Notes: generated from the letters alone by a model not told the origin. A DNA stretch of 64,000 nt from Candidatus Marinacidobacterium sp. (GCA_965220965.1 CBDCRI010000001.1:293532-357531), one strand, 5' to 3'; positions 31,926 to 62,537 are shown, counted from the first letter of the stretch. Numbers and translations are program-made.

Positions 31926-31928
31926 TCG

Positions 31929-35574: not shown

Positions 35575-35664
35575 GGCTTCACGGCTCCTGGGCGGTTGGC
35601 GCCGGACAGCGTATCACAGCGCTCCTGAAGGGCGCTCCCGCCCAGGCCCGGCCCAAGCGCCCCA

Positions 35665-40292: not shown

Positions 40293-40476
40293 CCGCTTCG
40301 GACCCGCGAAAGCTGCGGCTGCGCCACGCGCCGCCGGAGAAGGCCCTTGCTGGCAAAGGCCTCCCGGCAGCCGGCCGGGACCGCCCGTGAACCCGAACCC
40401 GCCATGGCCGCCTGCGGGCGCGAAGGCGGCGGGATTTGCTTCAATCCGCCCTGAACACTTCCGGAGCGGACGCCCG

Positions 40477-41649
40477 ATGAACGACGCCGACATCCTCCCC
40501 GCCCCCCGCATCGCCGATGCCTCCGACGCCTTGCACAGCTGGCTGCGGTCGCACCTTGCCGTCCCCACCAAGGCGAGGATGTGGGGCGTGGAGGGAACCT
40601 TCACCCCGCCGCTGTCCAGGGCGGTCTACGGGGACGGCGGCGCCATCCTCTGCGTCTGCGACAGGCGCGCCCGCCCCGCCTTCTGGCAGGTGCGCATCGA
40701 CAGCAAGTGGCGCATCGGGACCGAGCCCGGCCGCGACCACGCCGCCCTCGACTTGGGCAAGGCCATCCGCGAGATCGCGGCCAACTTGGCGGCTGAGTTC
40801 GCGCCCCTGGACACCGAGGTCGAGGCCGCGGAGGAGAAGGCCCAGCAGGCGGACGACGAAATCGATTGGATGCGGGACTGCGACCCGGAGGCGGCCTTCA
40901 TGGACCCAGGCCTTCCCAGGGACGCGCACGGCAACTTGGCGATCGACATCAGCGACGGCGTGATGTTCTGGCGCGGCGGCGCGACCGCCGCGCCGACGGC
41001 CGTGCGCCACTGCGCGTTCGGCGAGGCGGGCGTCGGCGAGCTCGACGTGATGCACCACGGGATCGTGGAGCCGGTCAGGATCGGGGGCGTCCTAGTGATG
41101 CCCCGCGTCGCGGACGCCTCCGAGGCCGAGCACCTGCGCCTGCAGGCGCTCCTGTGCGCGCCTCGGGAGGGGCGCCTTTGGGAGCACTCCCGGCCGGTCA
41201 AGTTCACGCCAGCGCTGTCGCGCGCGGTCTACGGCGACGGCAAGGGCCTCATCGGCATCACGACCATCAGCGACCGGCCGCGGTACTGGCTGGTGCGCAT
41301 CGACAGCCAGTGGATGGTGCCGGGCCGCAGCTGCGACGCCGAGCGCCGGCTGCCCCCCGACGCGCCGGACGTGGGCGAGGCCATGGAGGGCATAGAGGTG
41401 AACCTCATCGCTGAGTTCGGCTCCTCCGACCCGGAAGCCTACCTCGACGATGAGATCGCCGACTGCGACGACTGCTGCGGCCGCGGGTGCGACGCCTGCG
41501 CCCACACCGGCTACGGGCCCGAGGGCACGCCGCCGGACTTCCCGGCCATCGATCTGACCGACGGGACCAGCTGGTGGCGCGAGGACTACCCGGCGCCGTC
41601 CGCGGACGCCCGGCCGCGCAAGGCGCGCCTTCCCGCCCCCGCCGTCTAG
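40477..41649 (+). CDS. Hypothetical protein with an internally duplicated ~100-aa domain and a C-terminal Cys-rich motif.
   Basis: Duplicated W..EG.FTPPLSRAVYGDGGAILCV.DRRARPAFWQVRIDSKW / W.HSRPVKFTPALSRAVYGDGKGLIGI..ISDRPRYWLVRIDSQW. C-terminal CDDCCGRGCDACAHTGYG...FPAIDLTDGTSWWREDYP. Confidence 0.55.
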   Translation: MNDADILPAPRIADASDALHSWLRSHLAVPTKARMWGVEGTFTPPLSRAVYGDGGAILCVCDRRARPAFWQVRIDSKWRIGTEPGRDHAALDLGKAIREIAANLAAEFAPLDTEVEAAEEKAQQADDEIDWMRDCDPEAAFMDPGLPRDAHGNLAIDISDGVMFWRGGATAAPTAVRHCAFGEAGVGELDVMHHGIVEPVRIGGVLVMPRVADASEAEHLRLQALLCAPREGRLWEHSRPVKFTPALSRAVYGDGKGLIGITTISDRPRYWLVRIDSQWMVPGRSCDAERRLPPDAPDVGEAMEGIEVNLIAEFGSSDPEAYLDDEIADCDDCCGRGCDACAHTGYGPEGTPPDFPAIDLTDGTSWWREDYPAPSADARPRKARLPAPAV

Positions 41650-41726
41650 GCCGTAGGCGCCGGCCGCGGCACCGTTGGTGGCGCGCTTCCTACAATCTCG
41701 GGCATCGCTTCACGTGGGGGGCCGAC

Positions 41727-42842
41727 ATGCCCGACCCGGCAGGCAGCAGGGCGCCATGCGGGCGCCTGGAGGACGCCGTCATCGACGGCGACCGGTTTTC
41801 GCCGCGGACCGCCGCCCCGTCGGACGCCGAGCACGGGCGCTGGCGCGCGCTGCTGGAGGCGCCGACCAGGGCCAAGGTCTGGGGCGCGGGGCCGGAGCGG
41901 GCGTTCATCCCGCCGCTCTCCTCGACCGTGTACGGCGACGGCGAGGCGGTCCTGTGCGTGTCGCCCATCAAGTCGCGGCCGGCCTTCTGGCAGGTGCGCA
42001 TCGACAGCGAGTGGCGCCATGGCGACGGCGGCGGCCCGCCGCGGCGCAACAGCGACGTGGCCCAGGGGGTCCACGCGATCGCCCGCAACCTCGCGCGGGA
42101 GTTCGGCGCCGCGTTCGACCTCTCCGAAGGCTTCTCGTGGCAGCGCGGCGGCCCCGACGCCGCCGTCCCGAGGGATCCGGACAAGCCGCACTACCACCCG
42201 GTCCTGCGCTTCGGCCTCGAAGCGCCGGGCGCGATGGCGCGCAGCGAGCTCGACGGGAGGCTTGGGCACGTGGACGTGGGCCCGGGGAACGCCCTGCGGT
42301 CCGCCGAGGCCATCGCGGTCTGCCCGCGGGTCGCGGACGCCGCCGACGTCGAGCACGAGCGGCTGCGCGCCGCGCTGTGCGTGCCCCAGACGGGAGAGCT
42401 GCGGGGCCAGCCGGTCGAGTTCACGCCGCCGCTGTCCAATGCCGTGTACGGGGACGGACGCGCGCTGCTGTGCGTCTCCACCCGCAACGACCGCCCCAAG
42501 CACTGGCTGGTCCGCATCGACAGCCAATGGCGGGTCGTTGGGGATCCGCACCTGCCGCCGGACGCGCCCGATGTCAAAGGGATGATCCTGGCCATCCTCG
42601 ACAACCTAGAGGCGGAGTTCGGCGACGGCGGCCTCAACAGCCGCTTCACCGGGAAGCGCTGCGGCGCCTGCCCCGCTGAAGGCGCCTGCGAGTCCTGCCA
42701 GGGATGCGGCTTCGAGCCTTGCTGCGAGCCGCCCGAGTTTCCGGCGATCGACACCTCCGTCGGCTTCGGCTACTGGCGGCAGGACTACCCGCAGCCGCCT
42801 GCCCCGAGGCGGCTCCCCAACGCTTCCGCCTGTGGGCCGTAA
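41727..42842 (+). CDS. Paralog of the preceding gene.
   Basis: Same duplicated domain (FIPPLSSTVYGDGEAVLCVSPIKSRPAFWQVRIDSEW ...). C-terminal CGACPAEGACESCQGCGFEPCCEPPEFPAIDTSVGFGYWRQDYP. Confidence 0.55.
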   Translation: MPDPAGSRAPCGRLEDAVIDGDRFSPRTAAPSDAEHGRWRALLEAPTRAKVWGAGPERAFIPPLSSTVYGDGEAVLCVSPIKSRPAFWQVRIDSEWRHGDGGGPPRRNSDVAQGVHAIARNLAREFGAAFDLSEGFSWQRGGPDAAVPRDPDKPHYHPVLRFGLEAPGAMARSELDGRLGHVDVGPGNALRSAEAIAVCPRVADAADVEHERLRAALCVPQTGELRGQPVEFTPPLSNAVYGDGRALLCVSTRNDRPKHWLVRIDSQWRVVGDPHLPPDAPDVKGMILAILDNLEAEFGDGGLNSRFTGKRCGACPAEGACESCQGCGFEPCCEPPEFPAIDTSVGFGYWRQDYPQPPAPRRLPNASACGP

Positions 42843-42993
42843 GGCCGCAGCGCGGGGACGCGGCAGCGAAGCCGCGCGCTTTCGCGGGTTGCTGCAGGCA
42901 GGCGGTTCAGAGCCCCCGAACGCCCAAGGCCGAATCCCCCGCTGTGGCATAATCCCTGCCAGTGCCAAGGCGAGCCAAGGAACCGGGGGAAGC

Positions 42994-43311
42994 ATGCCGG
43001 AGGTGGACTCAGCAGCCGCGCGAAACGGCTTGGGCGCGGTCGAGGCCAAGCCGCCCGACCTGCGGGTTGGGCGCGCGCTCGACGCCGGCTGGCGGGCCAC
43101 CGTCAGGGAAGGCCGCCCGGGACCGCTTCGAAAGGACTTCGAAGCGGCTTTGCAAGCCGTCGCCGAACAGGGCGGCCCGGTTCCCCTGGGGCGCATCCAG
43201 CGCCGGGTCGAGGCCGCCGTGAGGCGCGCATGCGGCCGGGCCGACGCGCGCGCGCATCGCGGGGCCGCGGCCGCAAGGCGGCCCAGGGCGCTTGGCGGGG
43301 CGGACTCATGA
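42994..43311 (+). CDS. Hypothetical small protein.
   Basis: 105-aa ORF. Its stop overlaps the next ATG (ATGA at 43308-43311). Confidence 0.35.
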   Translation: MPEVDSAAARNGLGAVEAKPPDLRVGRALDAGWRATVREGRPGPLRKDFEAALQAVAEQGGPVPLGRIQRRVEAAVRRACGRADARAHRGAAAARRPRALGGADS

Positions 43312-43565: not shown

Positions 43566-43632
43566 GGGCTTGCGCTGCCGGCAGCCGCCGCCTGCCCGGA
43601 GCGCCCATTCACGACGCGGCACGGAGACGGGA

Positions 43633-44148: not shown

Positions 44149-44366
44149 CGGGCCGCCGGCGCCGACGTCCCAGCGCCTGACCTCGCCGGGGGCCGCCGGA
44201 CGGGGCGCGGCCGCCATCGCCCTCTCCGGATCCATCGCCCGCATCGCCGCCATGGCCCCTTCCCCCGCCGAAGCCCGCGGGCGCCCGCCTTCGCCCCCGC
44301 CGCGGCGCCCGCCCCGCGGGACGGCCCCGGCCCGCCGGAAGGCGCCCTGAGCCGGCCGGAGCGGTC

Positions 44367-44445
44367 AATCGAATCAAAAAGACGGCGTTTTTGATTCGAT
44401 TAGGGGGCTTAATCGCATCAAAAAACGCTATTATTTGATTCGATT
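44367..44445. promoter_or_regulatory. Two 35-bp palindromic operator-like sites (AATCGAATCAAAAA-N7-TTTTTGATTCGATT and AATCGCATCAAAAAAC..TTATTTGATTCGATT) upstream of the Fic gene.
   Basis: Near-perfect inverted repeats in an AT-rich island 20-100 bp upstream of the ATG at 44464. Confidence 0.6.
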
Positions 44446-44463
44446 AGCGGGAGAACGTCGATC

Positions 44464-45696: not shown

Positions 45697-45844
45697 CCGG
45701 CCGGCCGGCCCCCCTCGGGGGGCGCCCAACGCCGCGCCGGCGCGGGAAAGCGGCGGCATCCGGCGCAAGGGGCTCCCCGCCCGCCCTCGAACTGGGCCGG
45801 CTGCCGGCGGGGGCATGCCCGTCGGGGCCGGCCAAGGGCCCGGT

Positions 45845-45853
45845 TGCTAGAAT
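45845..45853 (+). promoter_or_regulatory. Extended -10-like motif TGCTAGAAT-CCC upstream of cassette gene P1. The same motif recurs at 46851, 48828, 50986, 58622, 59802, 62487, 40438 and 42945.
   Basis: Recurrent TGnTAnAAT followed by CC(C), 40-55 nt upstream of the ATG codons. Confidence 0.45.
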
Positions 45854-45897
45854 CCGTGCCCGCGGCCCGCCCTGGGCCGCCCGGAGAAGGGGGGAGC

Positions 45898-46812
45898 ATG
45901 GCGCAGCGCACCGTCAGATTGCGGCCGGATGCGGCCCGCGAGGCCATCCTCGCCCGGACCTGCCCGCCGAACGCCGTCGTGGCCGGCGACCTGTTCCTCA
46001 CCGGGGAGCCGTGGCTGACCCGGCTGCCCGAGGGCCTCAGGGTCGAGGGCCGGCTGGGGATCAGCGGCTGCCACCGCCTCGCGGGGCCCATCATCGGGCT
46101 GTCGGCGGACTCGCTGGAGATCTCCGACTGCGCCGCCCTGGTGGGCTTGATCGAGGACTCCGCGCAGGGCCTCCTCGTGCCCGGGGACCTGGTCCTGCAG
46201 GACTGCCCCGTGCTGGACCTCTTTCCCGAGGTGGCCGCCATTCGGGGCGACCTCCATGTCAGCAACTGCGGTCTGGGCTGGATGCAAATGGGCCATGGGG
46301 AGCCTTGGAAGCTCGCCGTCGGCGGCTCCGCGACGATCGAGGGGTGCGTCGGCCTCAAAAGCCTGCCGCTGCAAATGGCCGTCGGCGGCGACCTGCACAT
46401 CCTGGACTGCCCGCAGCTCGGCCGCAGCAGCTGGAGGCCGTCGCCGGACGTGTCCGTCGGCGCGGCCTGCCGCATCCAGCGCTGCCACGCCCTCCGGCGA
46501 TTGCCGTCCATCGCGTTCCGGGGGGAGGGCCACCTGCGCATCGCCGAATGCCACAGCCTCTCCGCCGTCTGGGAGGACGTGCGGCCGCGGGGGTCCCTGC
46601 ACCTCGATGACTGCCCGCTGCTGTTGCACCTGCCCGACGGGCTCGCCTTGAGCGGCAGCCTCCATGCGACCGATTGCCCCGCGCTGGAATGGCCGGACGG
46701 CCTTGACGTCCAGGGGGAGGTCAGGGCCTTGGGCACCACCCCGCGCCGGGTGCCGCCCTCGGCAGGCCCCGCCGAAGGGCGCGGCAAGGCGCCGGCCGGC
46801 CCGGCCCCCTGA
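45898..46812 (+). CDS. Cassette-family member P1: ~300-aa cysteine-containing LRR-like repeat protein.
   Basis: N-terminal .AREAIL..TCPP.AVV.G.L.L...P.L..LP.GL.VEG.L.I.GCHRL. Repeats of ~22 aa C(P)xLxxLPxxLxVGGxLxIxxC. C-terminal GTTPRR. Confidence 0.7.
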   Translation: MAQRTVRLRPDAAREAILARTCPPNAVVAGDLFLTGEPWLTRLPEGLRVEGRLGISGCHRLAGPIIGLSADSLEISDCAALVGLIEDSAQGLLVPGDLVLQDCPVLDLFPEVAAIRGDLHVSNCGLGWMQMGHGEPWKLAVGGSATIEGCVGLKSLPLQMAVGGDLHILDCPQLGRSSWRPSPDVSVGAACRIQRCHALRRLPSIAFRGEGHLRIAECHSLSAVWEDVRPRGSLHLDDCPLLLHLPDGLALSGSLHATDCPALEWPDGLDVQGEVRALGTTPRRVPPSAGPAEGRGKAPAGPAP

Positions 46813-46903
46813 GGGCCTGCGGCCCGGCGCCGCCCAGCCGGCCCCGCGGTTGCTAGAATCCCGCCGGGCCCCGCGCAGGGCGGGGCGGCGACGGGAGTGA
46901 GGC

Positions 46904-47800
46904 ATGGCGAACGGCACCGTCATCATGGCCCCGGAGGAGGCGAGCGAGGCGATCCTGGCCGGGACCTGCCCGGCCGGCGCCGTGGTGGCGGGCCACCTGA
47001 CGCTGCACGGCGAGCCCTGGCTGGCCGAGCTGCCCAAGGGCCTTTCGGTCGAGGGGCGGCTGCGCATCGCCGGCTGCCACCGCCTCAAGCGGCTGCCCGA
47101 AGGGCTGTCGGCCCTCGGCCTGGCCGTCGAGAACTGCTGCCTCCTCGAGGGGTTCGACCACGCGGCCTCGCTGCGGTTCGAGACGCCCGGCGACCTCTCC
47201 TTCAGCAACTGCCCTTCGCTGCGGCTGCTCCCGGTTGAGGCCGCCGCCGGGGGCGACCTGACCATCAAGGACTGCCAGCGGGCCTTCGGCCACTCGACGG
47301 GAGGGCCCGCGCTTGCGCCGCGGGCGCTCCAGGCGGGCGGCAGCGCGTTCCTCGCGGGCCTCCCCGGCCTGGTCGAGCTTCGCGGCCGCATCCGCGTCGG
47401 CGAGAGCCTGGAGATCGACGGGTGCCCGTTCCTGGCCCAGGTGGGCGGCGGCCCCGAGCGCATCCGCGTCGGCCGGGGCTGCCGGATCGCCCGCTGCCAC
47501 GCCCTCAGGACCGTGGCGGGCATCGAGTTCGCAGGGGACCGGGGGGAGCTGGCCATCCGCCACTGCACGGCGCTGGAGTCCATCGGCGACGACGTCCGCC
47601 CCTCGGGCAGCCTGGCGGTCATCGGCTGCCCCTCGCTCCCGCGGCTGCCGAGCGGCCTGGCCCTGGCCGGGAGCCTGTGGGCCAACAACTGCCCCGCCCT
47701 GCGCCTGCCCGACGACCTCGAGGTGCGGGGGAGGGTCTGGCAATGGGGCGTGGACATGCGCCGGGCGGCCGCCAAGGGCGGCCCCTCGCCCTCCCCCTGA
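46904..47800 (+). CDS. Cassette-family member P2.
   Basis: MAPEEASEAILAGTCPAGAVVAGHLTLHGEPWLAELPKGLSVEGRLRIAGCHRLKRLPEGLSA...GVDMRRAA. Confidence 0.7.
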   Translation: MANGTVIMAPEEASEAILAGTCPAGAVVAGHLTLHGEPWLAELPKGLSVEGRLRIAGCHRLKRLPEGLSALGLAVENCCLLEGFDHAASLRFETPGDLSFSNCPSLRLLPVEAAAGGDLTIKDCQRAFGHSTGGPALAPRALQAGGSAFLAGLPGLVELRGRIRVGESLEIDGCPFLAQVGGGPERIRVGRGCRIARCHALRTVAGIEFAGDRGELAIRHCTALESIGDDVRPSGSLAVIGCPSLPRLPSGLALAGSLWANNCPALRLPDDLEVRGRVWQWGVDMRRAAAKGGPSPSP

Positions 47801-47872
47801 AGCGCGCCCGGCCACGCGCTCGGCTGCCGGAATCGACGGACCCGCGCGCAACGCGGACCGGAAGGAGCGAAC

Positions 47873-48796
47873 ATGGCGAAGCGAACCGCCCGGCTGGCGC
47901 CGGCGCAGGCCCAAGAGGCCATCCTCAAGGGGGAGTGCCCGCCCGGCGCGGTGGTGGAGGGGGGCTTGGCTTTCGTCAGCGAGCCGGGGCTGGCCGAGCT
48001 GCCCAGGGACCTCACGGTGCTGGGGCCGCTGCAGGTCGACGGCTGCCACCGGCTCAAGCGGCTGCCCAAGGGGCTGTCGGCGACCGCCCTCAGCGTCCGC
48101 GAATGCGCCTCCCTCGAAGGCTTCGAGCCCGCCCCCGGAACGGCGTTCCAAGTGGACGGCGACCTGCTGTTCAGCAAGTGCCCGTCGCTGGCGCGCTTCC
48201 CGGAGGCCCTGGAGGTCGGGCGCGACCTGACCCTCAAGGACTGCCACCAAGCCTGGACCAACCCGATGGGGCTGCCCCTTTGGGTGCCGGAGCGGGTTCG
48301 GGTGGGCCGCGCCGCGGTCCTCGACGGCTGCGTCGGCCTCACCGAGCTGCCGGGCCGCATGGAGGTCGGCCTGGAGCTGCGGATCATCGGCTCCCCCTTC
48401 CTTGCCGAGATCAGGGCGGAGGAGGGTTTCGGGACGCTCACGGTCGGGACCGCCTGCCTCATCAAGCGGTGCCATGGCCTGCGCCGCGTGGCGAGCCTTT
48501 CGTTCGCGGGCGAAGGCGAGCTTGCGGTCATCGACTGCGACGCGCTGGAGGCCATCGGCGACGGCGTCCGGCCCCAAGGGCGGCTGGCGCTCATGGACTG
48601 CCCGTCGCTGGCGCGGCTGCCCAGGCGCCTCGACCTGAAGGGCAGCCTGGTGGCCGACAACTGCCCGTCGCTGGGGGCGCCGCCGGCGGGGATCCGGGCG
48701 CGGGAGGGGCTCTGGCCCTCGGGGACGACGCCGCGCTGGGCGGACGCCCCGGCGGCTGCGGCGCCGGTCGGACGCCCCACCCGCCAGGCCCCTTGA
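47873..48796 (+). CDS. Cassette-family member P3.
   Basis: Same architecture as P1; C-terminal GTTPRWADAP. Confidence 0.7.
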   Translation: MAKRTARLAPAQAQEAILKGECPPGAVVEGGLAFVSEPGLAELPRDLTVLGPLQVDGCHRLKRLPKGLSATALSVRECASLEGFEPAPGTAFQVDGDLLFSKCPSLARFPEALEVGRDLTLKDCHQAWTNPMGLPLWVPERVRVGRAAVLDGCVGLTELPGRMEVGLELRIIGSPFLAEIRAEEGFGTLTVGTACLIKRCHGLRRVASLSFAGEGELAVIDCDALEAIGDGVRPQGRLALMDCPSLARLPRRLDLKGSLVADNCPSLGAPPAGIRAREGLWPSGTTPRWADAPAAAAPVGRPTRQAP

Positions 48797-48897
48797 GCGG
48801 GCGCGGGGCGCCGTCCGGCGCCCGGTTGCTAGAATCCCTGCGCCGCCACCGCCCAGGCGACTGGGCCGGCCGCCCGCAAGCCAGCTGAGGGACGCCC

Positions 48898-49845: not shown

Positions 49846-49972
49846 CGCGCCGCCCCGCCGGCCCGCGCAAGCCACTCGCCAAGCCCGTCCGGCCCCGCCC
49901 CTTCGGCTGCGCTGCGGGCGCTGCCGCCGCCATCGCGCCGCGCCCGAGGGCCGGACGCGCCAGGGGGGCGGC

Positions 49973-50905: not shown

Positions 50906-51033
50906 GGCGCCGCCCGCCGAGCCGGCGGGCCATCCCGCGAAGCCGCGCGCAACGCCGCCCGCTCGGCCCCACCGCGGGCGCGGTTGCTAAAATCCCGCAA
51001 CGCTCAAACGCCAGTCCGAAAAAGGGGGAAGGC

Positions 51034-51963: not shown

Positions 51964-51997
51964 CCCGCCGCCCGCAAGGCCGCCCCGGGGAGGCAGC

Positions 51998-52918: not shown

Positions 52919-52930
52919 GAGCGCACGGGG

Positions 52931-53980
52931 ATGCTGGGCGTGGACCTGTTCGCCGGCGCCGGGGGGCTGTCCGCGGGCGCCCGGGCGGCGGGCGTGCGCA
53001 TCGCCGTCGCGGTCGAGTCGGACCCGCGCGCCGCCGACGCCTACCGCCTCAACCACCCCGAGGCGGACCTGCGGGTCATGGACGTCAGGCGGCTGCCCGA
53101 CCCGGCGCCCATTGCCACCTCCCAGCCCACGGTCCTGCTCGGCGGGCCGCCGTGCCAGGCGTTCTCCTCCTCCAACCAGAGGTCCCGAAGCCTGGGCAAT
53201 CCGGCGAACCGCCTCTACGTAGAGATGCTGCGCGTGGCGCGGGCCATGCGGCCAACCCACGTCGTCATCGAGAACGTCCGGGGGTTCGTCGAGGCCCAAG
53301 GCGGGCTGTTCCTCAGCGACGCCCTGAAGCGGCTTCGCGAGCTCGGCTACCACGTCGCCCACGGCATGCTCGACGCCGCCGACTTCGGCGTGCCGCAGCA
53401 CCGGCGGCGCCTGTTCATCGTCGGCTCCCGGGGACGCCCGCCGAGGCTGCCCCGGCCCGTCGGCGGGCCGCGGACGACGGTGGCCGACGCGCTGCTCGAC
53501 CTGCCCGTGCTGGAAAACGGCGCCGCCCTGCCCCTGGCCCGCTACCGGCGGGCGCCCCACTCCGCCTACGCCCGGCGCCTGCGCGGGGACGGCGCCGCGT
53601 GCACCGGCCATCTCGTCACCCGCAACGCGCCCCACATCGTGGAGCGGTACCGGCACGTGCCGCCGGGCGGCAACTGGCGGGCGATCCCGGCCCGGCTCAT
53701 GGCGGGCTACGCGGACCGCACGCGCTGCCACGAGGGCCTCTACCGCCGGCTGCGCTGGGACGCGCCCTCGGTGGTGCTCAACAACTTCAGGAAGAACATG
53801 CTGATCCACCCCTGGGCGCAGCGCGGCCTGTCGGTGCGCGAGGCGGCGCGGCTGCAGTCGTTTCCCGACGCCCACGCCTTCGCCGGGAGCATCGGCTTCC
53901 AGCAGCAGCAGGTGGCCGACGCCGTGCCGCCGCTCATGGCGCGGGCGGTGCTGGAGAGCGTCCTGCAGGGCGCGGGCTAG
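52931..53980 (+). CDS. C5 cytosine-specific DNA methyltransferase (Dcm-like), embedded in the cassette array.
   Basis: DLFAGAGGLS (motif I), GGPPCQAFSSSN (motif IV), ENVRGF (motif VI), QHRRRLFIVG (motif VIII). It sits 13 bp after the P7 stop. Confidence 0.85.
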   Translation: MLGVDLFAGAGGLSAGARAAGVRIAVAVESDPRAADAYRLNHPEADLRVMDVRRLPDPAPIATSQPTVLLGGPPCQAFSSSNQRSRSLGNPANRLYVEMLRVARAMRPTHVVIENVRGFVEAQGGLFLSDALKRLRELGYHVAHGMLDAADFGVPQHRRRLFIVGSRGRPPRLPRPVGGPRTTVADALLDLPVLENGAALPLARYRRAPHSAYARRLRGDGAACTGHLVTRNAPHIVERYRHVPPGGNWRAIPARLMAGYADRTRCHEGLYRRLRWDAPSVVLNNFRKNMLIHPWAQRGLSVREAARLQSFPDAHAFAGSIGFQQQQVADAVPPLMARAVLESVLQGAG

Positions 53981-54042
53981 GGGCCGTCGGCGGAGGGCTT
54001 GGTTCAACGGCCGCAGCGCCGGCTGCCGGCAGGAGGGCGAAA

Positions 54043-54806
54043 ATGGCGACATCCGGGACCCGCATGACCCCGGACGAGGCCCGCGAGGCCATCCTCGGCG
54101 GCGCCTGCCCCGACGGCGCCCAGTCCGCGAGGCCGGCCCGATCCGCCTGCCCGCCGGCCTCACGGTGGAGGGCGGCCTGCACGCCAACGAGTGCCCGGGG
54201 CTCAGGCACCTGCCGCGGGGGCTGTCGGCGGCGTCGGTGGCCGTCGAGGCCTGCGCGGCCTTCGAGGGCTTCGATCCCGAGTTCGAGGGGGCCTTCCGCG
54301 TGCCCGGGAACGCCCACTTCCTCGCGTGCCACGCCCTGGCCCGGTTCCCGGAGGAGGTCGCGGTCGGGGGACACTTCGACCTCACGCGCTGCGCGCGCGC
54401 CTGGGCGGGGCCGTCCGGGACGCCGAGAAGGCTCACGGCGGGAGGCAGGGCGGTCCTCACCGGATGCGCGGGGCTCAGCGAGCTGCCGGAGGAGATGGCG
54501 GTCGGCCAGGCCCTGCTGCTGATCAAGTGCCCGAGCCTGCGCAGCGTGCCCCATGGCGAGGGGGCGGGCGCCCCCCGCGCGGGCGCCTACGCCGGCATCT
54601 TCCGCTGCGACGGCCTGGAGCGCGTTGACGGGATCTCGTTCGAGCCGGGCGGCGTCCTGGAGGTGGTGGGCTGCCGCAGGCTCAGGTCCATCGGCGACGG
54701 CGCGCGGCCGGAACGGCTGTCCGTGGAGGGCTGCCCGCTGCTGGAGCGGCTGCCGCAGCGGCCGGCCTCCCGCCCCGCCTCCCGCAAAGGCCCGCCGTTG
54801 CCCTGA
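54043..54806 (+). pseudogene. Frameshifted cassette-family member P8.
   Basis: The N-terminus MATSGTRMTPDEAREAILGGACPDGAQ runs in one frame. The LRR-like body (ECPGLRHLPRGLSAASVAVEACAAFEGF...CPLLERLP) lies in another frame from ~54165. The frame switch is near 54125. Confidence 0.6.
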
Positions 54807-55072
54807 TCACGCAACCGGGGGCACGGCCTCGACCGGGAGGGAGTCCGGCGAACGCCCAGGCCGCCGCTCGTTCCGGGCGGCCAATGCCGATTCATCGCCA
54901 GCCGTTCACAGCCCTCGGGCAAAGCCGCCCCAATCCCCGACCCGCGGGAATTCGGGGTGCCTGCCAACCCATTCGCCCCGCACCGCCAGGACCTGGAAGG
55001 GAAACCGGGTCCAGTGCTATGGTCCAAGCCGGCTTCAGGGATGCGCGCAGCGCAGCGAACCGAGACTCGAAC

Positions 55073-56419
55073 ATGCGCCTGTCCGTCCTCCTACACGATG
55101 AGCTTGCCGTCGAGCTGCAGGCCGATCCGCGGCAGCGGGCCGCCATCCTGACGCGGGGGGCCGCGATGCGGTGGCTCTCCGCCGCCTGGACGGGCGATGA
55201 GGGACTCAACCCCATGGTCAATTGGCTCGAGGCGCTCCTGCCGGAAAGCGGCAAGCTTGAGCGATGGCTGGGGCAGACGCGGGGGAGGCTGCTCGCAGGC
55301 GGCGTCGAGGACCGGCCCCACATTCCGGAAACGACGCTTTGGATGCATGCGGACGCGGAGTTTGCGGGCGCCGTGTCCCTCGTTCGGGACCAAGGCTCCC
55401 CCCGGAAGGCCCTGCCCATGGACTCCTCCGCCTATCGGAGGCTCGATGAGAAGGACGTTGGGCGGCTGCTTCTCGACGAGAACCAATTGGCCGGACGCGC
55501 GAAGGGCTCCCCCCGGGGCATTGAAGGGCGGGCGCGATCCTCGCTGTCCGGGATGCGTCCGAAGATCACCCTGACGGCCGTTGACGGCGATCCGGACCGG
55601 GGCTGGGCGCAAGGGGAGCCTGGGCAGCTGAACACTTGGATCGTCAAGCATGAGCACAGCCCGAACCTCCCCGGGGAGGCCGGCGTGGAGGCGGTTTGCC
55701 AAAGCGCGCTGGACCTTGCCGGGGTGCCGGCGGCCCGCACGCTGTCCCGGGTGATTGACGGCATGCAGTGCGTCCTGAGCGAGCGCAGCGACCGGGCCGT
55801 CAGGGACGGGGCGGTCGTGCCGGTCCACCAGGAGGACTATCGGCAGGCGGCGGGCAAGGGGATCGTGAAGTTTCGCGAGGCCGTCCAGCCGCGCAGCGAG
55901 TGGCCCTTTGCCTACCGGCTGCTGGACGGCGAGGCCGAGCGTGAGGCGCTGACCCGCTTCCTGGCGGGGTCGTGGCTGTTGGCGCACTGCGACCTGCACA
56001 GGGGCAACTTGGGCTTCACCATCACCCAACGGGGGGCGGGGCCGAAAAGGGCGTCCGTGGCGCCGGCGTACGACGTGTCGAGCGCCGTCGGCACGAAGCT
56101 GAGCGCAAGGCTTGAGTTCCCCATCGCCGCGCAGGGCGACCCCGCGAAGATCAGCGTCCGCCAATGGGCCGCGCACGCCAGGGAGTGCGGAATCGAGGAG
56201 GATGCCACGCTGGAGGCGGTTTCGAGCGTCGCGCGGGCGATGCCTGGCGCCCTCGCCCAAGCCATGGCCGACGCACGGGCGGGCCATGAGAACATCAGGC
56301 AGGATGCGGTCGATGCGCGGTGCGCGGCGGTGATGGGGCACGTCGTCGCCCGCGCCGACCGCTTCGAGCAGGACTTGGCACGGAGGATGAGGAGGGCCTT
56401 CGACGCGCCGGGGCCTTAG
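55073..56419 (+). CDS. HipA-family serine/threonine kinase toxin-like protein, with no adjacent HipB.
   Basis: GMRPKITL, HCDLHRGNLGF and APAYDVSS motifs; ~450 aa. Confidence 0.7.
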   Translation: MRLSVLLHDELAVELQADPRQRAAILTRGAAMRWLSAAWTGDEGLNPMVNWLEALLPESGKLERWLGQTRGRLLAGGVEDRPHIPETTLWMHADAEFAGAVSLVRDQGSPRKALPMDSSAYRRLDEKDVGRLLLDENQLAGRAKGSPRGIEGRARSSLSGMRPKITLTAVDGDPDRGWAQGEPGQLNTWIVKHEHSPNLPGEAGVEAVCQSALDLAGVPAARTLSRVIDGMQCVLSERSDRAVRDGAVVPVHQEDYRQAAGKGIVKFREAVQPRSEWPFAYRLLDGEAEREALTRFLAGSWLLAHCDLHRGNLGFTITQRGAGPKRASVAPAYDVSSAVGTKLSARLEFPIAAQGDPAKISVRQWAAHARECGIEEDATLEAVSSVARAMPGALAQAMADARAGHENIRQDAVDARCAAVMGHVVARADRFEQDLARRMRRAFDAPGP

Positions 56420-56665
56420 GCCGCGGGATTCCCAGCCCGCCCGAAGGTCGCCGGCGGCCAGGAGCGGAGGCCGGGGCGCCGCCGGTTCGGCATCAGGCCG
56501 CAAGGCGCCCCGGATTGCCCCAAGCCAAGGGCGCACGGGGAACCTGAAGGGCGAGCGGCGTGAACGGAAGGCGCCGGAGCCCGGCGGGCCGCCTTTCCCG
56601 AAGGACCGGCGTTGCTTTGATGGGGCAACGGGCGGCACGGCCCCCCACCCGCAGCGAAACGGCGA

Positions 56666-56974
56666 ATGCCCCATGGATTCACGCGCCTGACCACGGACGA
56701 GGCCTGGACGGCCATCCGGGCGGGCACCTGCCCCGACAACGCCTTCTTCGAGGGACGCCTGATCCTCGTCAGGCATGACGAAGCGACCGAGCCGCCCCGC
56801 AGCCTCGGGGCGGACGGGAAGCTCCGCATCATCAATTGCCGCCGCCTCCGGCTGCCGCCCCCGGGGCTGGCGGCCCACGCGCTCGGCGTCAAGGAATGCC
56901 CGTCGTCGGCGTTGCCGGTCGCGAGAGCAGGCGGAACATGCGTAGTGTGTTGCGAAGGCAGAAGCGTGATGTAA
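56666..56974 (+). pseudogene. Truncated cassette-family member P9 (102 aa, N-terminal module only).
   Basis: MPHGFTRLTTDEAWTAIRAGTCPDNAFFEGRLILVRHDEATEPPRSLGADGKLRIINCRRLRLPPPGLAAHALGVKECPS, then termination. Confidence 0.5.
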
Positions 56975-56981
56975 TCAGCGA

Positions 56982-57275
56982 GTGGAATTGGCTCACAAGC
57001 GGCAGGTGGCCGAGATGACGCGCAATCAGATGCTTAAGGCGTGGGCGCAACGCCCGCGAGTGGCTGGAAAGCCCCCCCGATCATGCGATGGGCAGCCGCC
57101 ATGCAGCAAGGCGGCACGGGCGGAGCGCCGGATTGCGGCGGGCGTTGAGTCAGCCGTTCAGTCAGCCCTGGACAGTTCCATTGACCTTCACCATGTCCGC
57201 GAGCGGGAGATCCAGCAGGCGGGCTTGAATCAGCCCTCGGAGTACGCGCTCGAAATGGCGGAGCGAACTCAGTAG
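56982..57275 (+). CDS. Small protein in a low-GC module; possible antitoxin.
   Basis: 97-aa ORF directly upstream of the PIN-like gene. Local GC is clearly lower than the flanks. Confidence 0.3.
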   Translation: MELAHKRQVAEMTRNQMLKAWAQRPRVAGKPPRSCDGQPPCSKAARAERRIAAGVESAVQSALDSSIDLHHVREREIQQAGLNQPSEYALEMAERTQ

Positions 57276-57282
57276 TTGGGCG

Positions 57283-58065
57283 ATGTCCGTCAAGCCGCTG
57301 CTCATTGCGTTCGACAGCAACATTCCAGCCCTGCCTTCAGTTCGGGCGTTCTGGGGAACGTTGTGCGAAGCGGTTGGGCAGCGAATGGCATTGACGCCAA
57401 CCGCCGCCTCTGAACTTCTTCGCCGAGTCAGGCTAGAAACCGAACGTGAATGGGACAGCCGCTTGCGGCTGCTGAAGGCTGATGGCGAAATCAGCTTGCG
57501 CCCCGGCGACATTCGAAGGCTGTCCACTGCGGCGGGCAATGCCGCAAGAGACATGCTGCGCCACGAAATGCGCAACTCCAACGGCATTTACGCAGCGGCG
57601 CACGAAGCCGGCCAAGCGGTGCTCGCTCTGGAAGAGGCGCTTTACGAATTGATGCCCGAGGACATCTTCGATCCAACCACCGACAACGGCATTCGAGACC
57701 GGAAGATCGTCATTGAGTCCCTCGCGCGCGGATTCAACGTCTTGGCCTCCAACAACACCCACAGCATTGACCACAATGGGCTAAAGGACTGGGTTGAAAC
57801 CGATGAGGCAAAGCGCTTGAAAATCCAATCCACCATACTGCGTCCCCAAGGCGCTGAACGAAAGCTGCGCAAGCACTATGGCAAGCCTGCGGATTGGACG
57901 GTTCGCGCCTTGGCGCGATCGTGCGTGACGGATCCCCACAACGCAAAGCGCGCGGTCAAGGAAATGGCCGACGCGTTGCAGCCGTTCGACGAGCGGGGCA
58001 TGGGCGAACTGCAAATGAGGATCAACAAAGTCCTGATGAACAAAAAAAACTGGACTCAGTGCTGA
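57283..58065 (+). CDS. PIN-like domain protein (putative toxin) in a low-GC module.
   Basis: N-terminal LLIAFDSNI resembles PIN motif I; 260 aa. The composition is atypical for the region. Confidence 0.35.
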   Translation: MSVKPLLIAFDSNIPALPSVRAFWGTLCEAVGQRMALTPTAASELLRRVRLETEREWDSRLRLLKADGEISLRPGDIRRLSTAAGNAARDMLRHEMRNSNGIYAAAHEAGQAVLALEEALYELMPEDIFDPTTDNGIRDRKIVIESLARGFNVLASNNTHSIDHNGLKDWVETDEAKRLKIQSTILRPQGAERKLRKHYGKPADWTVRALARSCVTDPHNAKRAVKEMADALQPFDERGMGELQMRINKVLMNKKNWTQC

Positions 58066-58652
58066 GCGCGGTTCGAACCCACGGCAACAGCATGGCAATG
58101 CGCACCAATGTCCTGATAGCGGAAAAGGCCACCAAGGAAGTGTCCAGACTATCAGGGGGCGACATCAGCCTCTAAATCGTCAGTGGCTGGCGGCGTGGAT
58201 CTTGTTTCGCATGTTGCGGGAGGGCGAAAGGGTTGGGCTTGTGCCGATGCCCCTTCCTGGTTCGGCAGCCGGCCGAACTCAACGTCGGGTTCGACCTCCG
58301 CATCCAGGGCCGCTCCCGCCTCTGGCAGTACGCCTTCGGCGCCCTAGGCGCGGTGCCAGAAAGCCACCGCGTCGGCGGCTCGGCGGAGCTGATCGGCAGC
58401 GACGGCCTTTCCGAGCGGCCGCAGCGCCTCCTGGAGGTCCGCTTCCGCCCCTTGCTGGCGCGCGTCCCGGACCGCCCGTCCCCGGAGGACGCGTTCCACT
58501 CCCATGACTGCCCCCTGCCTAGGGCGGACCCCTGGCTCAAGGCCGAAGCGGGAGGCAGGCAAGCGCGCGTGCGGGCGCGGCCTCACTCCAGCGCCTTGCC
58601 CGCGCCCAAGCGGCGCGCCGTTGCTTAAATCAAGCCGGACCGGGGCGCACCG

Positions 58653-58664
58653 CCCCCCCCCCCC
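58653..58664. repeat. Homopolymeric C12 tract in the 5' leader of cassette gene P10.
   Basis: TGCTTAAATCAAGCCGGACCGGGGCGCACCG-C12-ACGGAGAGGACGC-ATG. The tract sits between the promoter-like motif and the ribosome-binding site. Confidence 0.9.
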
Positions 58665-58677
58665 ACGGAGAGGACGC

Positions 58678-59784
58678 ATGGCGCAGCGCACCAACCGAAT
58701 GACCCCCGAGGAGGCCCGCGAGGCCATCGTTGCGGGCGCCTGCCCGGAGGGGGCGTCGGTCGACGGGCGGCTGCTGCTGGAGGACGCGGACTCGCTGACC
58801 GAGCTGCCGCGCGGCCTGCGGGTCGACGGCGAGCTTTGGATCCGCGGGTGCAACCGGCTGCGGCTGCTGCCCGCCGGGCTTTCCGCGCAGGCGCTGCGGG
58901 TGGAGGCCTGCTCCCTCATGGAGGGGTTCGCCCCGGACTTCGGCGGCGCCTTCGGCGCGCCGCGTTGGGTCCACTTCGAGAGCTGCCCATCGCTGCACAG
59001 CCTTCCCGACGCCCTGAGCGCGGGGGGCGACCTCTCGCTGGTCGGCTGCCATAGGCTCACGGCGCTGCCCCGAAGCCTGTCGGCGCGCTCGGTGCTGGTC
59101 GGCGACTGCGCCGCCTTGGAGGGGTTCCACGCCGACGCCAGCGCCTTCGAGGCCGCGGGGACCGTGAGGTTCCTGAACTGCCCCTCGCTGCACCGCTTCC
59201 CGGAAAGCCTGGCCGTCGGCCGCGACCTGCTGCTGATCGACTGCCCGCGCGCATGGGCGAGCCCCGCGGGGGAGCCCGGCGGCGCGCCGCGGCGGCTGTC
59301 CGTGGGCGGCACCGCCACCCTCGAGCGGTGCGCGGCGCTGTCGCGGCTCCCGGAGGACGCCGCCATCGGCGTGCGCCTCTACGTGGACCGGTGCCACCGC
59401 CTGGAGCGGCTGGGCGGGCTCGACGGGCCGCGCCCGCTACGCGTCGGCTTCGGCTGCAGCGTCGAGCGCTGCCAGGGGCTGCGGCGCATCGACCACATCG
59501 CGTTCAGGCGCTTTGGCTCGCTGGAGGTCGTCCACTGCCTGCGGGTCGAGGCCATCGGGGACGGCGTGAGGCCCCAGCGCAAGCTGCGCCTGGTGGGCTG
59601 CGGCGCGCTGGAGCGGCTGCCCGCCGCGCTCTCCCTCGACGGCGCCCTGGTCGCCCGCGACTGCCCCTCCCTGGCGGGGCCGCAGGGCGTTTCGGCCCCG
59701 ATCGTGGCGGCTGAGGGCACGACGCCGCGCTGGGAGGGCGCGGAGGCGGCGGCCGCCAAGGCGGACGCCGGCCCCTCCCCCTGA
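58678..59784 (+). CDS. Cassette-family member P10 (368 aa).
   Basis: MAQRTNRMTPEEAREAIVAGACPEGASVDGRLLLEDADSLTELPRGLRVDGELWIRGCNRLRLLP...GTTPRWEGAE. Confidence 0.7.
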   Translation: MAQRTNRMTPEEAREAIVAGACPEGASVDGRLLLEDADSLTELPRGLRVDGELWIRGCNRLRLLPAGLSAQALRVEACSLMEGFAPDFGGAFGAPRWVHFESCPSLHSLPDALSAGGDLSLVGCHRLTALPRSLSARSVLVGDCAALEGFHADASAFEAAGTVRFLNCPSLHRFPESLAVGRDLLLIDCPRAWASPAGEPGGAPRRLSVGGTATLERCAALSRLPEDAAIGVRLYVDRCHRLERLGGLDGPRPLRVGFGCSVERCQGLRRIDHIAFRRFGSLEVVHCLRVEAIGDGVRPQRKLRLVGCGALERLPAALSLDGALVARDCPSLAGPQGVSAPIVAAEGTTPRWEGAEAAAAKADAGPSP

Positions 59785-59839
59785 GCCGGCCCGGCCCGAT
59801 TTGCTCTAATGGGGGCATCGCATTGCCAAGGAAGGCGCC

Positions 59840-60550
59840 ATGGCGGGAGGGAGCCGCAGCATGTCCCCGGCACAGGCCCGGGCCGCGATCCTCGCGGGGG
59901 ACTGCCCGGACGGGGCGGTCGTCGAAGGGCCTCTCTGGCTGCTGCCGGGGGACGGCGGGGGCGTGCTGCCCGAGGGGCTGACCGTTGAGGGGGAGATGGT
60001 CCTCGATGGCTGGGACGGGATCAGGCACCTGCCCCCCGGGCTGTCCGCGCGCTCGCTCTGGATCCAGCGGTGCGCGGCGCTGGAGGGCTTCCATCCGGCC
60101 TTCGGGGGCGCCTTCCACGTGCCCGGGGACCTGCTCCTGATCGACTGCCCCGCCCTGCACGCCTTTCCCGCCGAGCTGAGCGTCGGCGGCGGCCTGCGCC
60201 TCGAACGCTGCCCGAGGGCCTGGTCGGGCGGGGCGGGCGCCGCCGGGGCGCCCCCCGCAAGGCTCAGGGTGGCGGGCGAGCTACGGCTGAAGAGCTGCGG
60301 GCGGCTGTCCGCGCTGCCCCCGGAGTTGGACGTCGGCGGCAGCCTGCGGATCACCGATTGCCCCGCGCTCAAGGACATCCGCCCGCGGCGCTGCGTGGGC
60401 CAGGTCCAAATCGAGAGCCGCGAGCCGGTGCGGGGCGTGGGAACGCTCTCCTTCAAGCCCTTGGGGGCGCTGCTGCACCCGCCCGCCGGCAGCGCCCTGC
60501 GGCGGAAGGCCCGACCCAATGGAGGGAAGCCCCATGGCCCAGGCCATTGA
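59840..60550 (+). CDS. Cassette-family member P11 (short variant, 236 aa, divergent C-terminus).
   Basis: MSPAQARAAILAGDCPDGAVVEGPLWLLP...GIRHLPPGLSARSLWIQRCAALEGF. Lacks the GTTPRW tail. Confidence 0.55.
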   Translation: MAGGSRSMSPAQARAAILAGDCPDGAVVEGPLWLLPGDGGGVLPEGLTVEGEMVLDGWDGIRHLPPGLSARSLWIQRCAALEGFHPAFGGAFHVPGDLLLIDCPALHAFPAELSVGGGLRLERCPRAWSGGAGAAGAPPARLRVAGELRLKSCGRLSALPPELDVGGSLRITDCPALKDIRPRRCVGQVQIESREPVRGVGTLSFKPLGALLHPPAGSALRRKARPNGGKPHGPGH

Positions 60551-61439
60551 ACTGACCGAGGCCGAGGCCCGCGAGGCCATACTGAAGGGGACGTGCCCGG
60601 AAGGCGCGGCGGTGGACGGGGGCCTCGCCTTCGAGCGGAAGGGCGCGTTGGTCGAGCTGCCCGAGGCGCTCAGGGTCCGCGGGACGCTGCGCATCAGCGG
60701 CTGCGACCGGATCAGGCGCCTGCCGGCCGGGCTGGACGCCGACGCCGTGCTGGTCGAGGAGTGCCCCGTTCTTGAGGGGACCGACCCCTCCAGGGGGGCG
60801 ACCCTGACCGTGAGGCGCGACCTCTCCTTCCTCAACTGCCCGTCCCTGGCGCGCTTCCCGGACCGGCTCAAGGTCGGGGGCAGCCTGTCCATGGCGAACT
60901 GCCCGCAGGCCTGGTCGCAGCCGGCCGGACGGCCAGGAGGCCCGCCCGAGGCCCTGCGCACGGGCGGCGACGTGACCCTGCACGCCTGCGCCGCCCTGCG
61001 GCACCTCCCGGACGCCCTTCGCGTCGGCGGCTCCCTCATCATCCTGGAGTGCCAGTCGCTGGAGGCCCTGCAAGACGGATACCCGGGCGGGCGCTGGCTC
61101 TTCGGCCATGCGGTCGTCATCAGGGGCTGCCACAACCTGCGCCGCGTCGGCGGGCTCAGGCACGAGAGCGCCGGCGAGCTTCAGGTCGAGCACTGCGCCG
61201 CCTTGGAGGAGATCGGCTCGGACGTCGGCCCGCTGCGCGTCCTCGGCCTGCGGAACTGCCCGTCGCTGCAGCGCCTGCCGGACAATCTGCCGGACGACGG
61301 CTGGCTCTCGGCCCGCGATTGCCCGTCGCTCCGGCCGCCGACGGGGTTGGCGGTTCGGGCCGCCTTCAAGCCGTCGGGCACCACGCCGCGCTGGACGGCG
61401 GGCGGCCCCGCGAAGCCGGCACGCCAGCCGGCCCCGTGA
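60534..61439 (+). CDS. Cassette-family member P12.
   Basis: MAQAIELTEAEAREAILKGTCPEGAAVDGGLAFERKGALVELPEALRVRGTLRISGCDRIRRLP...GTTPRWTAGG. Confidence 0.7.
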   Translation: MAQAIELTEAEAREAILKGTCPEGAAVDGGLAFERKGALVELPEALRVRGTLRISGCDRIRRLPAGLDADAVLVEECPVLEGTDPSRGATLTVRRDLSFLNCPSLARFPDRLKVGGSLSMANCPQAWSQPAGRPGGPPEALRTGGDVTLHACAALRHLPDALRVGGSLIILECQSLEALQDGYPGGRWLFGHAVVIRGCHNLRRVGGLRHESAGELQVEHCAALEEIGSDVGPLRVLGLRNCPSLQRLPDNLPDDGWLSARDCPSLRPPTGLAVRAAFKPSGTTPRWTAGGPAKPARQPAP

Positions 61440-61493
61440 CGGCGGCGAGGCCCGATCGGCAAGGCGCCCCGCCGGAAACCGCAACCCAGGGAG

Positions 61494-62408
61494 ATGAAGC
61501 GCATGGAGACGGCGATCGAACTGACGCGGGGGGTGCGCGAGGCCATCCTGAGGGGGGCGTGCCCGCAGGGCGCGGCCGTGGCCGGCGACCTCGTGCTCGA
61601 GGGCGAGGCCGCATTGACGGAGCTGCCGAGGGCGCTCACGGTCCATGGGACGCTGCGCATCGCCGGCTGCCACCGGCTCAGGCGCCTGCCTGTCGGCCTG
61701 GCGGCGGACAGCATCCACATCGAGAACTGCGCCGTCCTTGAGGGGGTGGCCCCAGCCACCGGGGCGGAACTGCGCGTGCGGCGGGACCTGACGTTCAGCC
61801 GATGCCCCTCCCTTGCGCGCTTCCCGGACCAGATCACGGTGGGCGGCAGCCTGTCCATCGCGGACTGCCCGCAGGCGTGGGCGCAGCCGAACGGGCAACC
61901 CGGAGGGCCGCCCTACGGCCTCAAGGCGGGCGGGGACGTGTCCCTGCAACGCTGCGCGGCCCTGCGGCACCTGCCGACGCGCATGCTCGTCGGCGGCTCC
62001 CTCAACATCGCCGAGTGCCACTCGCTGAGCAGCGTTGGCGAGGCATGGCTCGGCGCCGCGCCCATGCCCGAGGTCGGCGCCGTCTGGATCACGAGCTGCC
62101 ACGGCCTGCGTCGCGTCGGCGGGCTGGCGTTTGCGCAGGACGGGGAGCTTGACGTCGAGGACTGCGTCGCCCTGGAGGCCGTGGCGGACGACGTGGGGCC
62201 CCTGCACACCCTCGCCCTCAAGGGCTGCCCGTCGCTCAAGCGCCTGCCCCGCGGGCTGCCGCCCGACGGCTGGCTCTCGGCCCGCGACTGCCCGCTCCTC
62301 GAGCCGCCGCCGGAGCCTGCGGTCCGGGCCGCCTTGGAGACGTCGGGCACCACGCCGCGCTGGGCGCCGGCCAGCGCCGGGCGCCGGCCCCGGCCACCCT
62401 CCCCCTGA
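61494..62408 (+). CDS. Cassette-family member P13.
   Basis: METAIELTRGVREAILRGACPQGAAVAGDLVLEGEAALTELPRALTVHGTLRIAGCHRLRRLP...GTTPRWAPAS. Confidence 0.7.
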   Translation: MKRMETAIELTRGVREAILRGACPQGAAVAGDLVLEGEAALTELPRALTVHGTLRIAGCHRLRRLPVGLAADSIHIENCAVLEGVAPATGAELRVRRDLTFSRCPSLARFPDQITVGGSLSIADCPQAWAQPNGQPGGPPYGLKAGGDVSLQRCAALRHLPTRMLVGGSLNIAECHSLSSVGEAWLGAAPMPEVGAVWITSCHGLRRVGGLAFAQDGELDVEDCVALEAVADDVGPLHTLALKGCPSLKRLPRGLPPDGWLSARDCPLLEPPPEPAVRAALETSGTTPRWAPASAGRRPRPPSP

Positions 62409-62537
62409 GACCCTCGGCGAAGCCCGCGCCCCCGGCCGGACGCCGACGGGGACCGGACCTGCGGGGGGACGCCCGGCGCGCCCGTTTGCTTTAATGCCCG
62501 CAACGTCCCCGGACCCCATGCCCGAAGGAGCGGCCGC

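Follow-up and report, generated by a model that had tools for sequence, protein, structure and literature searches.

Promoters that carry a TG dinucleotide one base before the -10 hexamer and have no recognisable -35 element are known from Escherichia coli (the galP1 type) and from mycobacteria, where the TGN class of extended -10 promoters was reportedly described in 1998 by Bashyam and Tyagi. In the GC-rich genome of Mycobacterium tuberculosis, -10-only and TGN-extended promoters without a -35 element are the norm, and the TGN extension raises activity (PMC3898074; PMC1616969); it is present on only 7% of TANNNT promoters (PMC3898074, Cortes et al. 2013). An element of this form, TGnTAnAAT and its variants, is described here from a stretch of 64,000 nucleotides (nt) with a base composition of ~73% GC (GCA_965220965.1, CBDCRI010000001.1:293532-357531; termed the window), where it recurs upstream of a tandem array of leucine-rich repeat (LRR) genes and upstream of unrelated genes. 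The element is probably the -10 region of extended -10 promoters without a -35 element, most likely read by the primary (sigma-70-type) sigma factor; it would be a generic promoter and not the mark of one regulon.

The likeness to the mycobacterial TGN class extends to the setting, as the genome is GC-rich, the -10 element is the dominant signal, and the sites are intergenic and lie 30-75 nt before start codons. Unlike in M. tuberculosis, TG is present here at all nine sites listed in an earlier, sequence-only reading of the window and at 11 of 21 motif sites upstream of genes outside the LRR family; unlike the extended -10 norm, the hexamer is nearer to TAnAAT, and half of the LRR-family copies do not have A at -11. 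The -10-only TANNNT promoters of Actinobacteria (Mycobacterium, Streptomyces, Corynebacterium) likewise have one conserved AT-rich hexamer, lack a -35 consensus and start at a purine a few bases on; however, those genomes have many leaderless transcripts, whereas a leader of 25-70 nt and a Shine-Dalgarno sequence accompany every site here, and the taxon is possibly proteobacterial. The sigma-73 promoters of Caulobacter combine a GCTANAWC -10 element with a strong TTGACGS -35 element; GCTAnAA is common to these and to TGCTAGAAT, but there is no TTGACGS -35 in the present sites and the last position is T instead of C. The pentamer TTGCT is identical to the sigma-54 -12 element (TTGCW), but the -24 GG is missing.

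Form and enrichment of the element

The sequence-only reading had proposed a shared extended -10-like motif at nine sites; all nine are present in the sequence, although three coordinates (48828, 50986 and 40438) are off by 1 nt. The pattern TGnTAnAAT that was given for them holds at P1, P2, P4 and P6 only (array genes in the window are numbered P1-P14), while the other listed sites read TGCTnnAAT with T or C replacing the A of 'TA'; the copy at 45845 exists but ends in AATCCG instead of AATCCC, and the distance from motif start to ATG, put at 40-55 nt, measures 38-71 nt. The core of the proposal, an extended -10-like promoter element 5' of genes, is supported by enrichment, intergenic position and the TG-n-hexamer arrangement.

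Chance expectations were obtained from dinucleotide-preserving shuffles of the window. TGNTANAATCC occurs four times against 0.06 expected, a number reached in 0 of 100 shuffles; TGCTNNAAT is found 12 times (2.3 expected), the TANAAT hexamer 13 times (4.9 expected) and TTGCTNNAAT 11 times (0.44 expected), ten of these 11 copies being on the + strand, on which the block is encoded. The array continues on an ENA metagenome contig (L001) that overlaps window positions 62514-64000 with zero mismatch and adds 13.2 kb with 11 co-oriented paralogues, Q1-Q11. TG stands at -15/-14, one base before the hexamer, at all nine listed sites and at the downstream Q sites. The hexamer positions T-12, A-11 and T-7 (TAnnnT) are all kept in P1, P2, P4 and P6 (TAGAAT, TAAAAT), whose wider conserved core is cGGTTGCTAGAATCCc; the hexamer of the 42945 site, CATAAT, keeps A-11 and T-7 with C at -12, and T or C is seen at -11 in the sites at 40437 and before P10, P11, P14, Q1, Q4-7, Q9 and Q10. 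The TGCTAGAAT-type motif matches the TGnTATAAT consensus of primary sigma factors.

On this assignment the holoenzyme would touch the TG through sigma region 3 and melt the hexamer, the sole AT-rich patch in ~73% GC DNA; transcription would begin about 7 nt past the hexamer and yield a leader of 25-55 nt with a GGAGG-type ribosome-binding site. An indirect hint of the start site is given by GCAAC or GGGCAAC / CCCGCAAC, which puts CA 7 nt past the hexamer, the usual start-site spacing, at P6, P9, P14, Q4-7, Q10 and the leader of a clustered regularly interspaced short palindromic repeat (CRISPR) array.

The element upstream of unrelated genes

It had been suggested that the motif points to a common regulator or a special sigma factor for the accessory block; this is not supported, since a de novo search before genes outside the LRR family ranks this very element first. 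An expectation-maximisation search confined to non-family genes used 39 upstream regions, 22 from the window and its extension and 17 from a related scaffold of another metagenome (ENA ERZ23495064 scaffold_2729; 50,171 bp, 64% GC); it yielded TGCTAcAAT as the best 9-mer, and 21 of the 39 regions have a site, 30-78 nt from the ATG. The TG extension is present in 11 of these 21 sites, C stands at -13 in about half, and five have G at -13 (TGGTA...). Within the window the motif also precedes the SNF2 helicase, toxin-antitoxin genes, small hypothetical genes and the CRISPR leader, and it recurs before unrelated genes of the related scaffold; no second shared element (-35, -24 or operator palindrome) accompanies it.

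Position gives the same picture. Intergenic positions that precede a co-oriented start codon by 20-90 nt make up ~2% of strand positions; 15 of the 19 TGCTNNAAT matches in the window and extension, and 9 of 12 TGNTANNNT matches, fall into this class. Eleven of the 13 TANAAT hexamers are intergenic and 30-75 nt before a co-oriented start codon, and a twelfth (36700) joins them when its start codon is re-read; seven or eight of those placed upstream belong to non-family genes (SNF2 helicase, DUF2513, small genes at 13376 and 21142, and 41727).

On the + strand, TGCTTCAAT at 40437 (TTGCTTCAAT, 40436..40445) lies 31 nt before the gene at 40477-41649 (motif start to ATG, 40 nt), and TGGCATAATCCC at 42945 (TGGCATAAT, 42945..42953) lies 40 nt before the small gene at 42994-43311 (motif start to ATG, 49 nt). 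TACAAT at 41691..41696 (+) precedes the gene at 41727-42842 by 30 nt, and TGCTATGGT at 55015..55023 (+) precedes a HipA-like gene (ATG 55073) by 49 nt. TTGCTTGAAT at 13469..13478 (+) is 40 nt before an unrelated gene (13519-14097); its divergent partner, TGTTACAAT at 13416..13424 (-), is 39 nt before a minus-strand gene starting at 13376. The remaining minus-strand sites comprise TACAAT at 2180..2185, 35 nt before the SNF2-helicase gene start (2144); TACAAT at 14751..14756, 49 nt before the DUF2513 gene (start 14701); TATAAT at 15382..15387, 58 nt before a gene starting at 15323; TGCTACCAT at 17802..17810, 43 nt before a small gene (start 17758) that precedes the zeta-toxin gene; TGGTATAAT at 21179..21187, 36 nt before the minus-strand gene at 20936-21142; TATAAT at 21907..21912, 74 nt before a gene starting at 21832; TGATACGCT at 35608..35616, 33 nt before a gene starting at 35574; and TACAAT at 36695..36700, ~45 nt before an in-frame ATG with a Shine-Dalgarno sequence inside the gene at 35665-36696. 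A candidate leader promoter of the type I-D CRISPR array, TGCTGCAAT + AGGGCAAC (ATGCTGCAAT), occupies 32320..32328 (+), 29 nt before the first repeat. The sole TANAAT without a co-oriented gene downstream is TAAAAT at 14227..14232 (+), located between two convergent genes whose ends are at 14097 and 14297; a small RNA or antisense transcript could be transcribed from it.

Scaffold_2729 and the window both carry an M48-PDZ protease (60% identity), RlaP, zeta-toxin, HipA_C, a C5 methylase and LRR genes, the scaffold having one full-length LRR homologue. On the scaffold, ggTTGCTAGAAT is found before a methylase gene, cgTTGCTACAAT before another gene, and TGGTATAAT and TGGTACAAT before others; TTGCTACAAT also precedes an unrelated gene, and ATTGCTATACT stands before both the single LRR homologue and an unrelated gene. 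TTGCT(A/T)nAAT occurs before unrelated genes at scaffold positions 2655 and 5495. Further genes of the scaffold encode thymidylate synthase, dCTP deaminase and GmrSD_C, and there is a run of very small open reading frames (ORFs); because of these it looks phage- or plasmid-like.

Probable promoters of the leucine-rich repeat genes

All sites before the P genes are on the + strand. P1, P2 and P4 share TGCTAGAATCC (at 45845, 46851 and 48827) with the core TTGCTAGAAT (45844..45853, 46850..46859 and 48826..48835), made up of the TG extension and TAGAAT. From the end of the hexamer to the ATG there are 44 nt at P1 (ATG 45898) and at P2 (ATG 46904), and 62 nt to the first ATG of P4 (48898); counted from motif start, the distances are 53, 53 and 71 nt. 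At P6, TGCTAAAATCC at 50985 (core TTGCTAAAAT, 50984..50993) is followed by CCCGCAAC, with a candidate CA start 7 nt past the hexamer and the motif start 49 nt before the ATG. P10 has TGCTTAAAT at 58622 (TTGCTTAAAT, 58621..58630), in which T replaces A at -11, 56 nt before the ATG; P11 has TGCTCTAAT at 59802 (TTGCTCTAAT, 59801..59810) with C at -11 and a distance of 38 nt; P14 has TGCTTTAAT at 62487 (TTGCTTTAAT, 62486..62495, then GCCCGCAAC) with T at -11 and a distance of 52 nt. A decayed copy, CGGCTGCCGGAATCG / CTGCCGGAAT (47824..47833), is found 5' of P3 (ATG 47873); degenerate copies precede the disrupted member P8 (54043-54941), as TTGGTTCAAC at 53999..54008, and the fragment P9 (56666-56974), as TTGCTTTGAT + GGGGCAAC at 56612..56621. 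In the extension, TTGCTTCAAT or TTGCTTTAAT lies 29-50 nt before the ATG of Q1, Q4-Q7, Q9 and Q10, with the variants TTGCGTTAAC before Q3 and TTGATTCAAT before Q8.

Inspection of the upstream regions found no motif before P7, P12, P13, Q2 or Q11; a possible faint remnant at P5, CGGCTGCGCTGCGGG, was seen by eye only. Members without the motif start from -17 to ~130 nt after the preceding gene (72 nt for P3, 127 for P5, 34 for P7, -17 for P12, which overlaps, and 54 for P13); because these gaps are short, co-transcription with the upstream gene is plausible. Each paralogue, or each run of two or three, would then have its own promoter, and the predicted transcription units would be P1 / P2-P3 / P4-P5 / P6-P7 / P10 / P11-P13 / P14. 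Since nearly every member keeps a strong-looking promoter of its own, the LRR copies are probably not silent cassettes but expressed.

The sequence around the better sites suggests constraint. In P1, P2, P4 and P6 the 17-nt core is 90% identical, and the 41 nt upstream (43%) and 27 nt downstream (35%) are at background for the composition; this argues for selection for function on the core, because the conserved island sits in otherwise saturated DNA. Near-consensus copies would accordingly be those kept by purifying selection on ~17 nt. The view that the likeness of the sites is a mere relic of tandem duplication, copied intergenic DNA without present function, is very improbable: Q4-Q7 and Q10 do share ~55 nt of near-identical upstream sequence and promoter-plus-5' modules move by recombination, but only the core is kept in P1/P2/P4/P6 with flanks at background and proteins 42-50% identical, decayed copies occur where the gap is short (P3, and possibly the faint one at P5), and the same element precedes unrelated genes.

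Partner elements and other promoter classes

No -35 box accompanies the hexamer: a promoter scan returned 0 two-hexamer promoters, the best TTGACA match scored 2.36 against 2.22 +/- 0.13 in shuffles, i.e. shuffle level, and the stretch from -49 to -5, counted from the hexamer start, carries no positional information. Several other classes were considered and rejected. TTGCT equals the sigma-54 -12 consensus, but none of the sites has GG or TGGCAC 10-11 nt upstream, and downstream they keep AAT; the extracytoplasmic function (ECF)/EcfG promoter (GGAAC -35 and CGT(T) -10, 16-17 nt apart) has no match upstream of any family gene. Type III secretion boxes, checked because the LRR proteins resemble effector LRR domains, are absent upstream of family genes (PIP, TTCGB-N15-TTCGB; hrp/HrpL, GGAACC-N15/16-CCACNNA; tts core); the only PIP-like matches lie within a coding region (one) and on the other strand (one). 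CtrA and FNR boxes were likewise not found upstream of family genes.

A dimeric operator does not fit, as TTGCTnnAAT is not self-complementary and flank symmetry (e.g. GGATT...AATCC at 40436) is not common to the sites. If TTGCTN were itself a -35 hexamer, an AT-rich hexamer should lie 16-19 nt downstream, and by inspection none does. TTG as an upstream in-frame start codon was also rejected; it is in frame at P1 and P2 but not at P6, a stop interrupts P4, and there is no Shine-Dalgarno sequence. Between the genes no intrinsic terminators were recognised, the GC hairpins being no more stable than in shuffles and without T runs, and Rfam gave no RNA family in the window.

Proposed assignment to the primary sigma factor

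We infer the primary sigma factor from the match to its consensus and from the generality of the element, and several observations weigh against this assignment. In sigma-70 -10 elements no base is more conserved than the A at -11, yet it is absent from about half of the independent family sites (TTGCTTTAAT, TTGCTTAAAT, TTGCTCTAAT, TTGCTTCAAT) and from two or three non-family sites (13469, 40436 and the 57283 region); by E. coli rules such sites would be poor promoters. Furthermore, the comparison genes all come from the same accessory region or from a related mobile-looking element. Sites without A-11 may be weak promoters aided by the TG extension, or decaying copies; reading by another factor is less likely. 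As the comparison covers accessory genes alone, dependence on an alternative sigma factor that is itself sigma-70-like is conceivable. There is a slim chance that the sub-class TTGCT(T/C)nAAT, which has no A-11 and lies mostly before LRR genes, is served by an alternative sigma factor or an activator replacing -11 recognition; if true, the array of at least 25 LRR genes would be under common, switchable control distinct from the surrounding TGnTAnAAT promoters.

A broader version holds that TTGCTnnAAT(C) is the site of a dedicated alternative sigma or transcription factor, which would bring the LRR array together with a few neighbouring genes into one regulon. Family sites do share extra bases (T at -16, giving TTGC, in 14 of 15 independent sites, and often C after AAT), about half of them fit a primary sigma factor poorly for want of A-11, and TTGCTNNAAT is 25-fold above expectation. 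However, TTGCT(A/T)nAAT stands before unrelated genes, at 13469 and 40436 in the window and at the two scaffold positions given above; the motif is non-palindromic and has no second half-site, -35 or -24; a Pfam scan of 34 window proteins, which left a few small ORFs outside, showed no sigma factor, anti-sigma factor or obvious DNA-binding regulator; and the best-conserved copies are perfect TGnTAnAAT. A dedicated regulon is considered unlikely.

Promoters of the RpoS type (extended -10, C at -13, dispensable -35), which would imply stress-linked expression of the accessory genes, are a doubtful explanation, and more so than a dedicated regulon. Of 15 independent family sites 12 have C at -13, as do about half of those outside the family; there is no -35, and two TTGCTATACT sites on the related scaffold match CTATACT, the E. 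coli sigma-S -10 consensus. C makes up ~35% of the background, however, so that C at -13 is weak evidence, and five non-family sites carry G there (TGGTA...). The closest protein matches point loosely to Alphaproteobacteria; to our knowledge RpoS is confined to some proteobacterial classes, and Alphaproteobacteria are without it.

Reading the element as ordinary extended -10 promoters provides a usable promoter model for a very GC-rich organism (TGnTAnAAT, no -35, leader of ~25-75 nt) and sets out the likely transcription units of the defence and accessory island. It also removes the suggestion of an island-specific regulon, and with it the reason to look for a regulator that is probably not there.

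The leucine-rich repeat array

At least 25 tandem, co-oriented, LRR-only paralogues extend over window positions 45898-62976 and L001 positions 1860-14732 (64373-77245 in the joined sequence). P1-P7 lie on the + strand at 45898-46812, 46904-47800, 47873-48796, 48898-49845, 49973-50905, 51034-51963 and 51998-52918, and P10-P14 at 58678-59784, 59840-60550, 60534-61439, 61494-62408 and 62539-62976 (truncated); degraded members are found at 54043-54941, 56666-56974 and 58230-58619, and a C5 methylase, a HipA-like gene and pseudogene fragments break up the array. The P paralogues are ~300 amino acids (aa) long and 42-50% mutually identical; array members span 300-450 aa and all end in ...PSP*, with the final Pro invariant.

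The P proteins have no Pfam match. A family profile matches plant NLR LRR domains in the PDB, namely RPP1 (E = 1.3e-9) and Roq1, and thousands of repeat proteins in a representative library; three of eight that were scanned with Pfam have a C-terminal NEL E3-ligase domain. The AlphaFold model (predicted local distance difference test score, pLDDT, 89) is a beta-solenoid; compared with the PDB it gives weak matches, none at E <= 0.001, headed by the LRR domain of the effector XopL and the LRRs of NRG1 and Roq1. The array proteins are related to the LRR domains of NEL (IpaH-type) E3-ligase proteins, XopL and plant NLRs.

Full-length homologues outside this genome are rare, being P0036 and P0037 (305-307 aa), the former the single copy on scaffold_2729. 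No member of the family was found in GTDB representative genomes, phylogenetic footprinting found no relative in JGI metagenomes, and neither a plasmid DNA match nor a phage match was found; a search with the M48 protease produced no named relative. Plasmid pAC1084_1 of Acetobacter persici (NZ_CP014688.1, 495104-516036) carries nine weak (~27% identity) matches to the LRR family adjoining HipA and Fic genes; the accessory context of this megaplasmid is similar to that of the window.

The downstream half of the array is mosaic. In Q10 the promoter and ~120 nt of the coding 5' end are 88-95% identical to Q4-Q6, and the body is ~50-60% identical; in Q3 the body is 85-95% identical to Q4-Q6, and the promoter and 5' end ~55%. 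Because Q10 and Q3 show opposite mosaic identity (L001 4431-13978, Q3-Q10), the pattern indicates that recombination or gene conversion spreads promoter-plus-5' modules, which would thus move among the paralogues of this half. Q5 is without a stop codon and reads through the next promoter, and Q7 is a truncated copy of 48 aa. At this locus, the tandem array and its modular recombination are less ordinary than the motif.

Surrounding accessory island

Beyond the LRR array, the window represents an island of defence and accessory genes, with an SNF2 helicase, a DEAD/UvrD helicase, AbiEii, zeta-toxin, RlaP, Fic, HipA, a C5 DNA methylase and a type I-D CRISPR-Cas system. The type I-D array (32358-33762) has 22 repeats (GTTCCCAATCCCCATGAGGGGTAATGAG) and lies downstream of the cas genes (22179-32228); an identical repeat is found in two unrelated metagenome-assembled genomes (MAGs), one of Gammaproteobacteria (26 copies) and one of Vicinamibacterales. 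An orphan CRISPR-like array at 37027-40232 features I-E-type repeats (GCCCCGCCTGCGCGGGGATGGACCC) with a period of 61, split over four blocks, many of the repeats being degenerate; the window has no cognate cas genes, and the array accounts for ~3.5 kb without coding signal.

An AT-rich double palindrome at 44354-44463, CAATCGAATCAAAAAGACGGCGTTTTTGATTCGATTAG then AATCGCATCAAAAAACGCTATTATTTGATTCGATTAG, stands in surroundings of 75% GC directly upstream of a DUF4172-Fic gene; its role may be that of an operator or of a bidirectional terminator. The best plasmid matches of the Fic gene are 44-49% identical, the top one being gammaproteobacterial and most others alphaproteobacterial.

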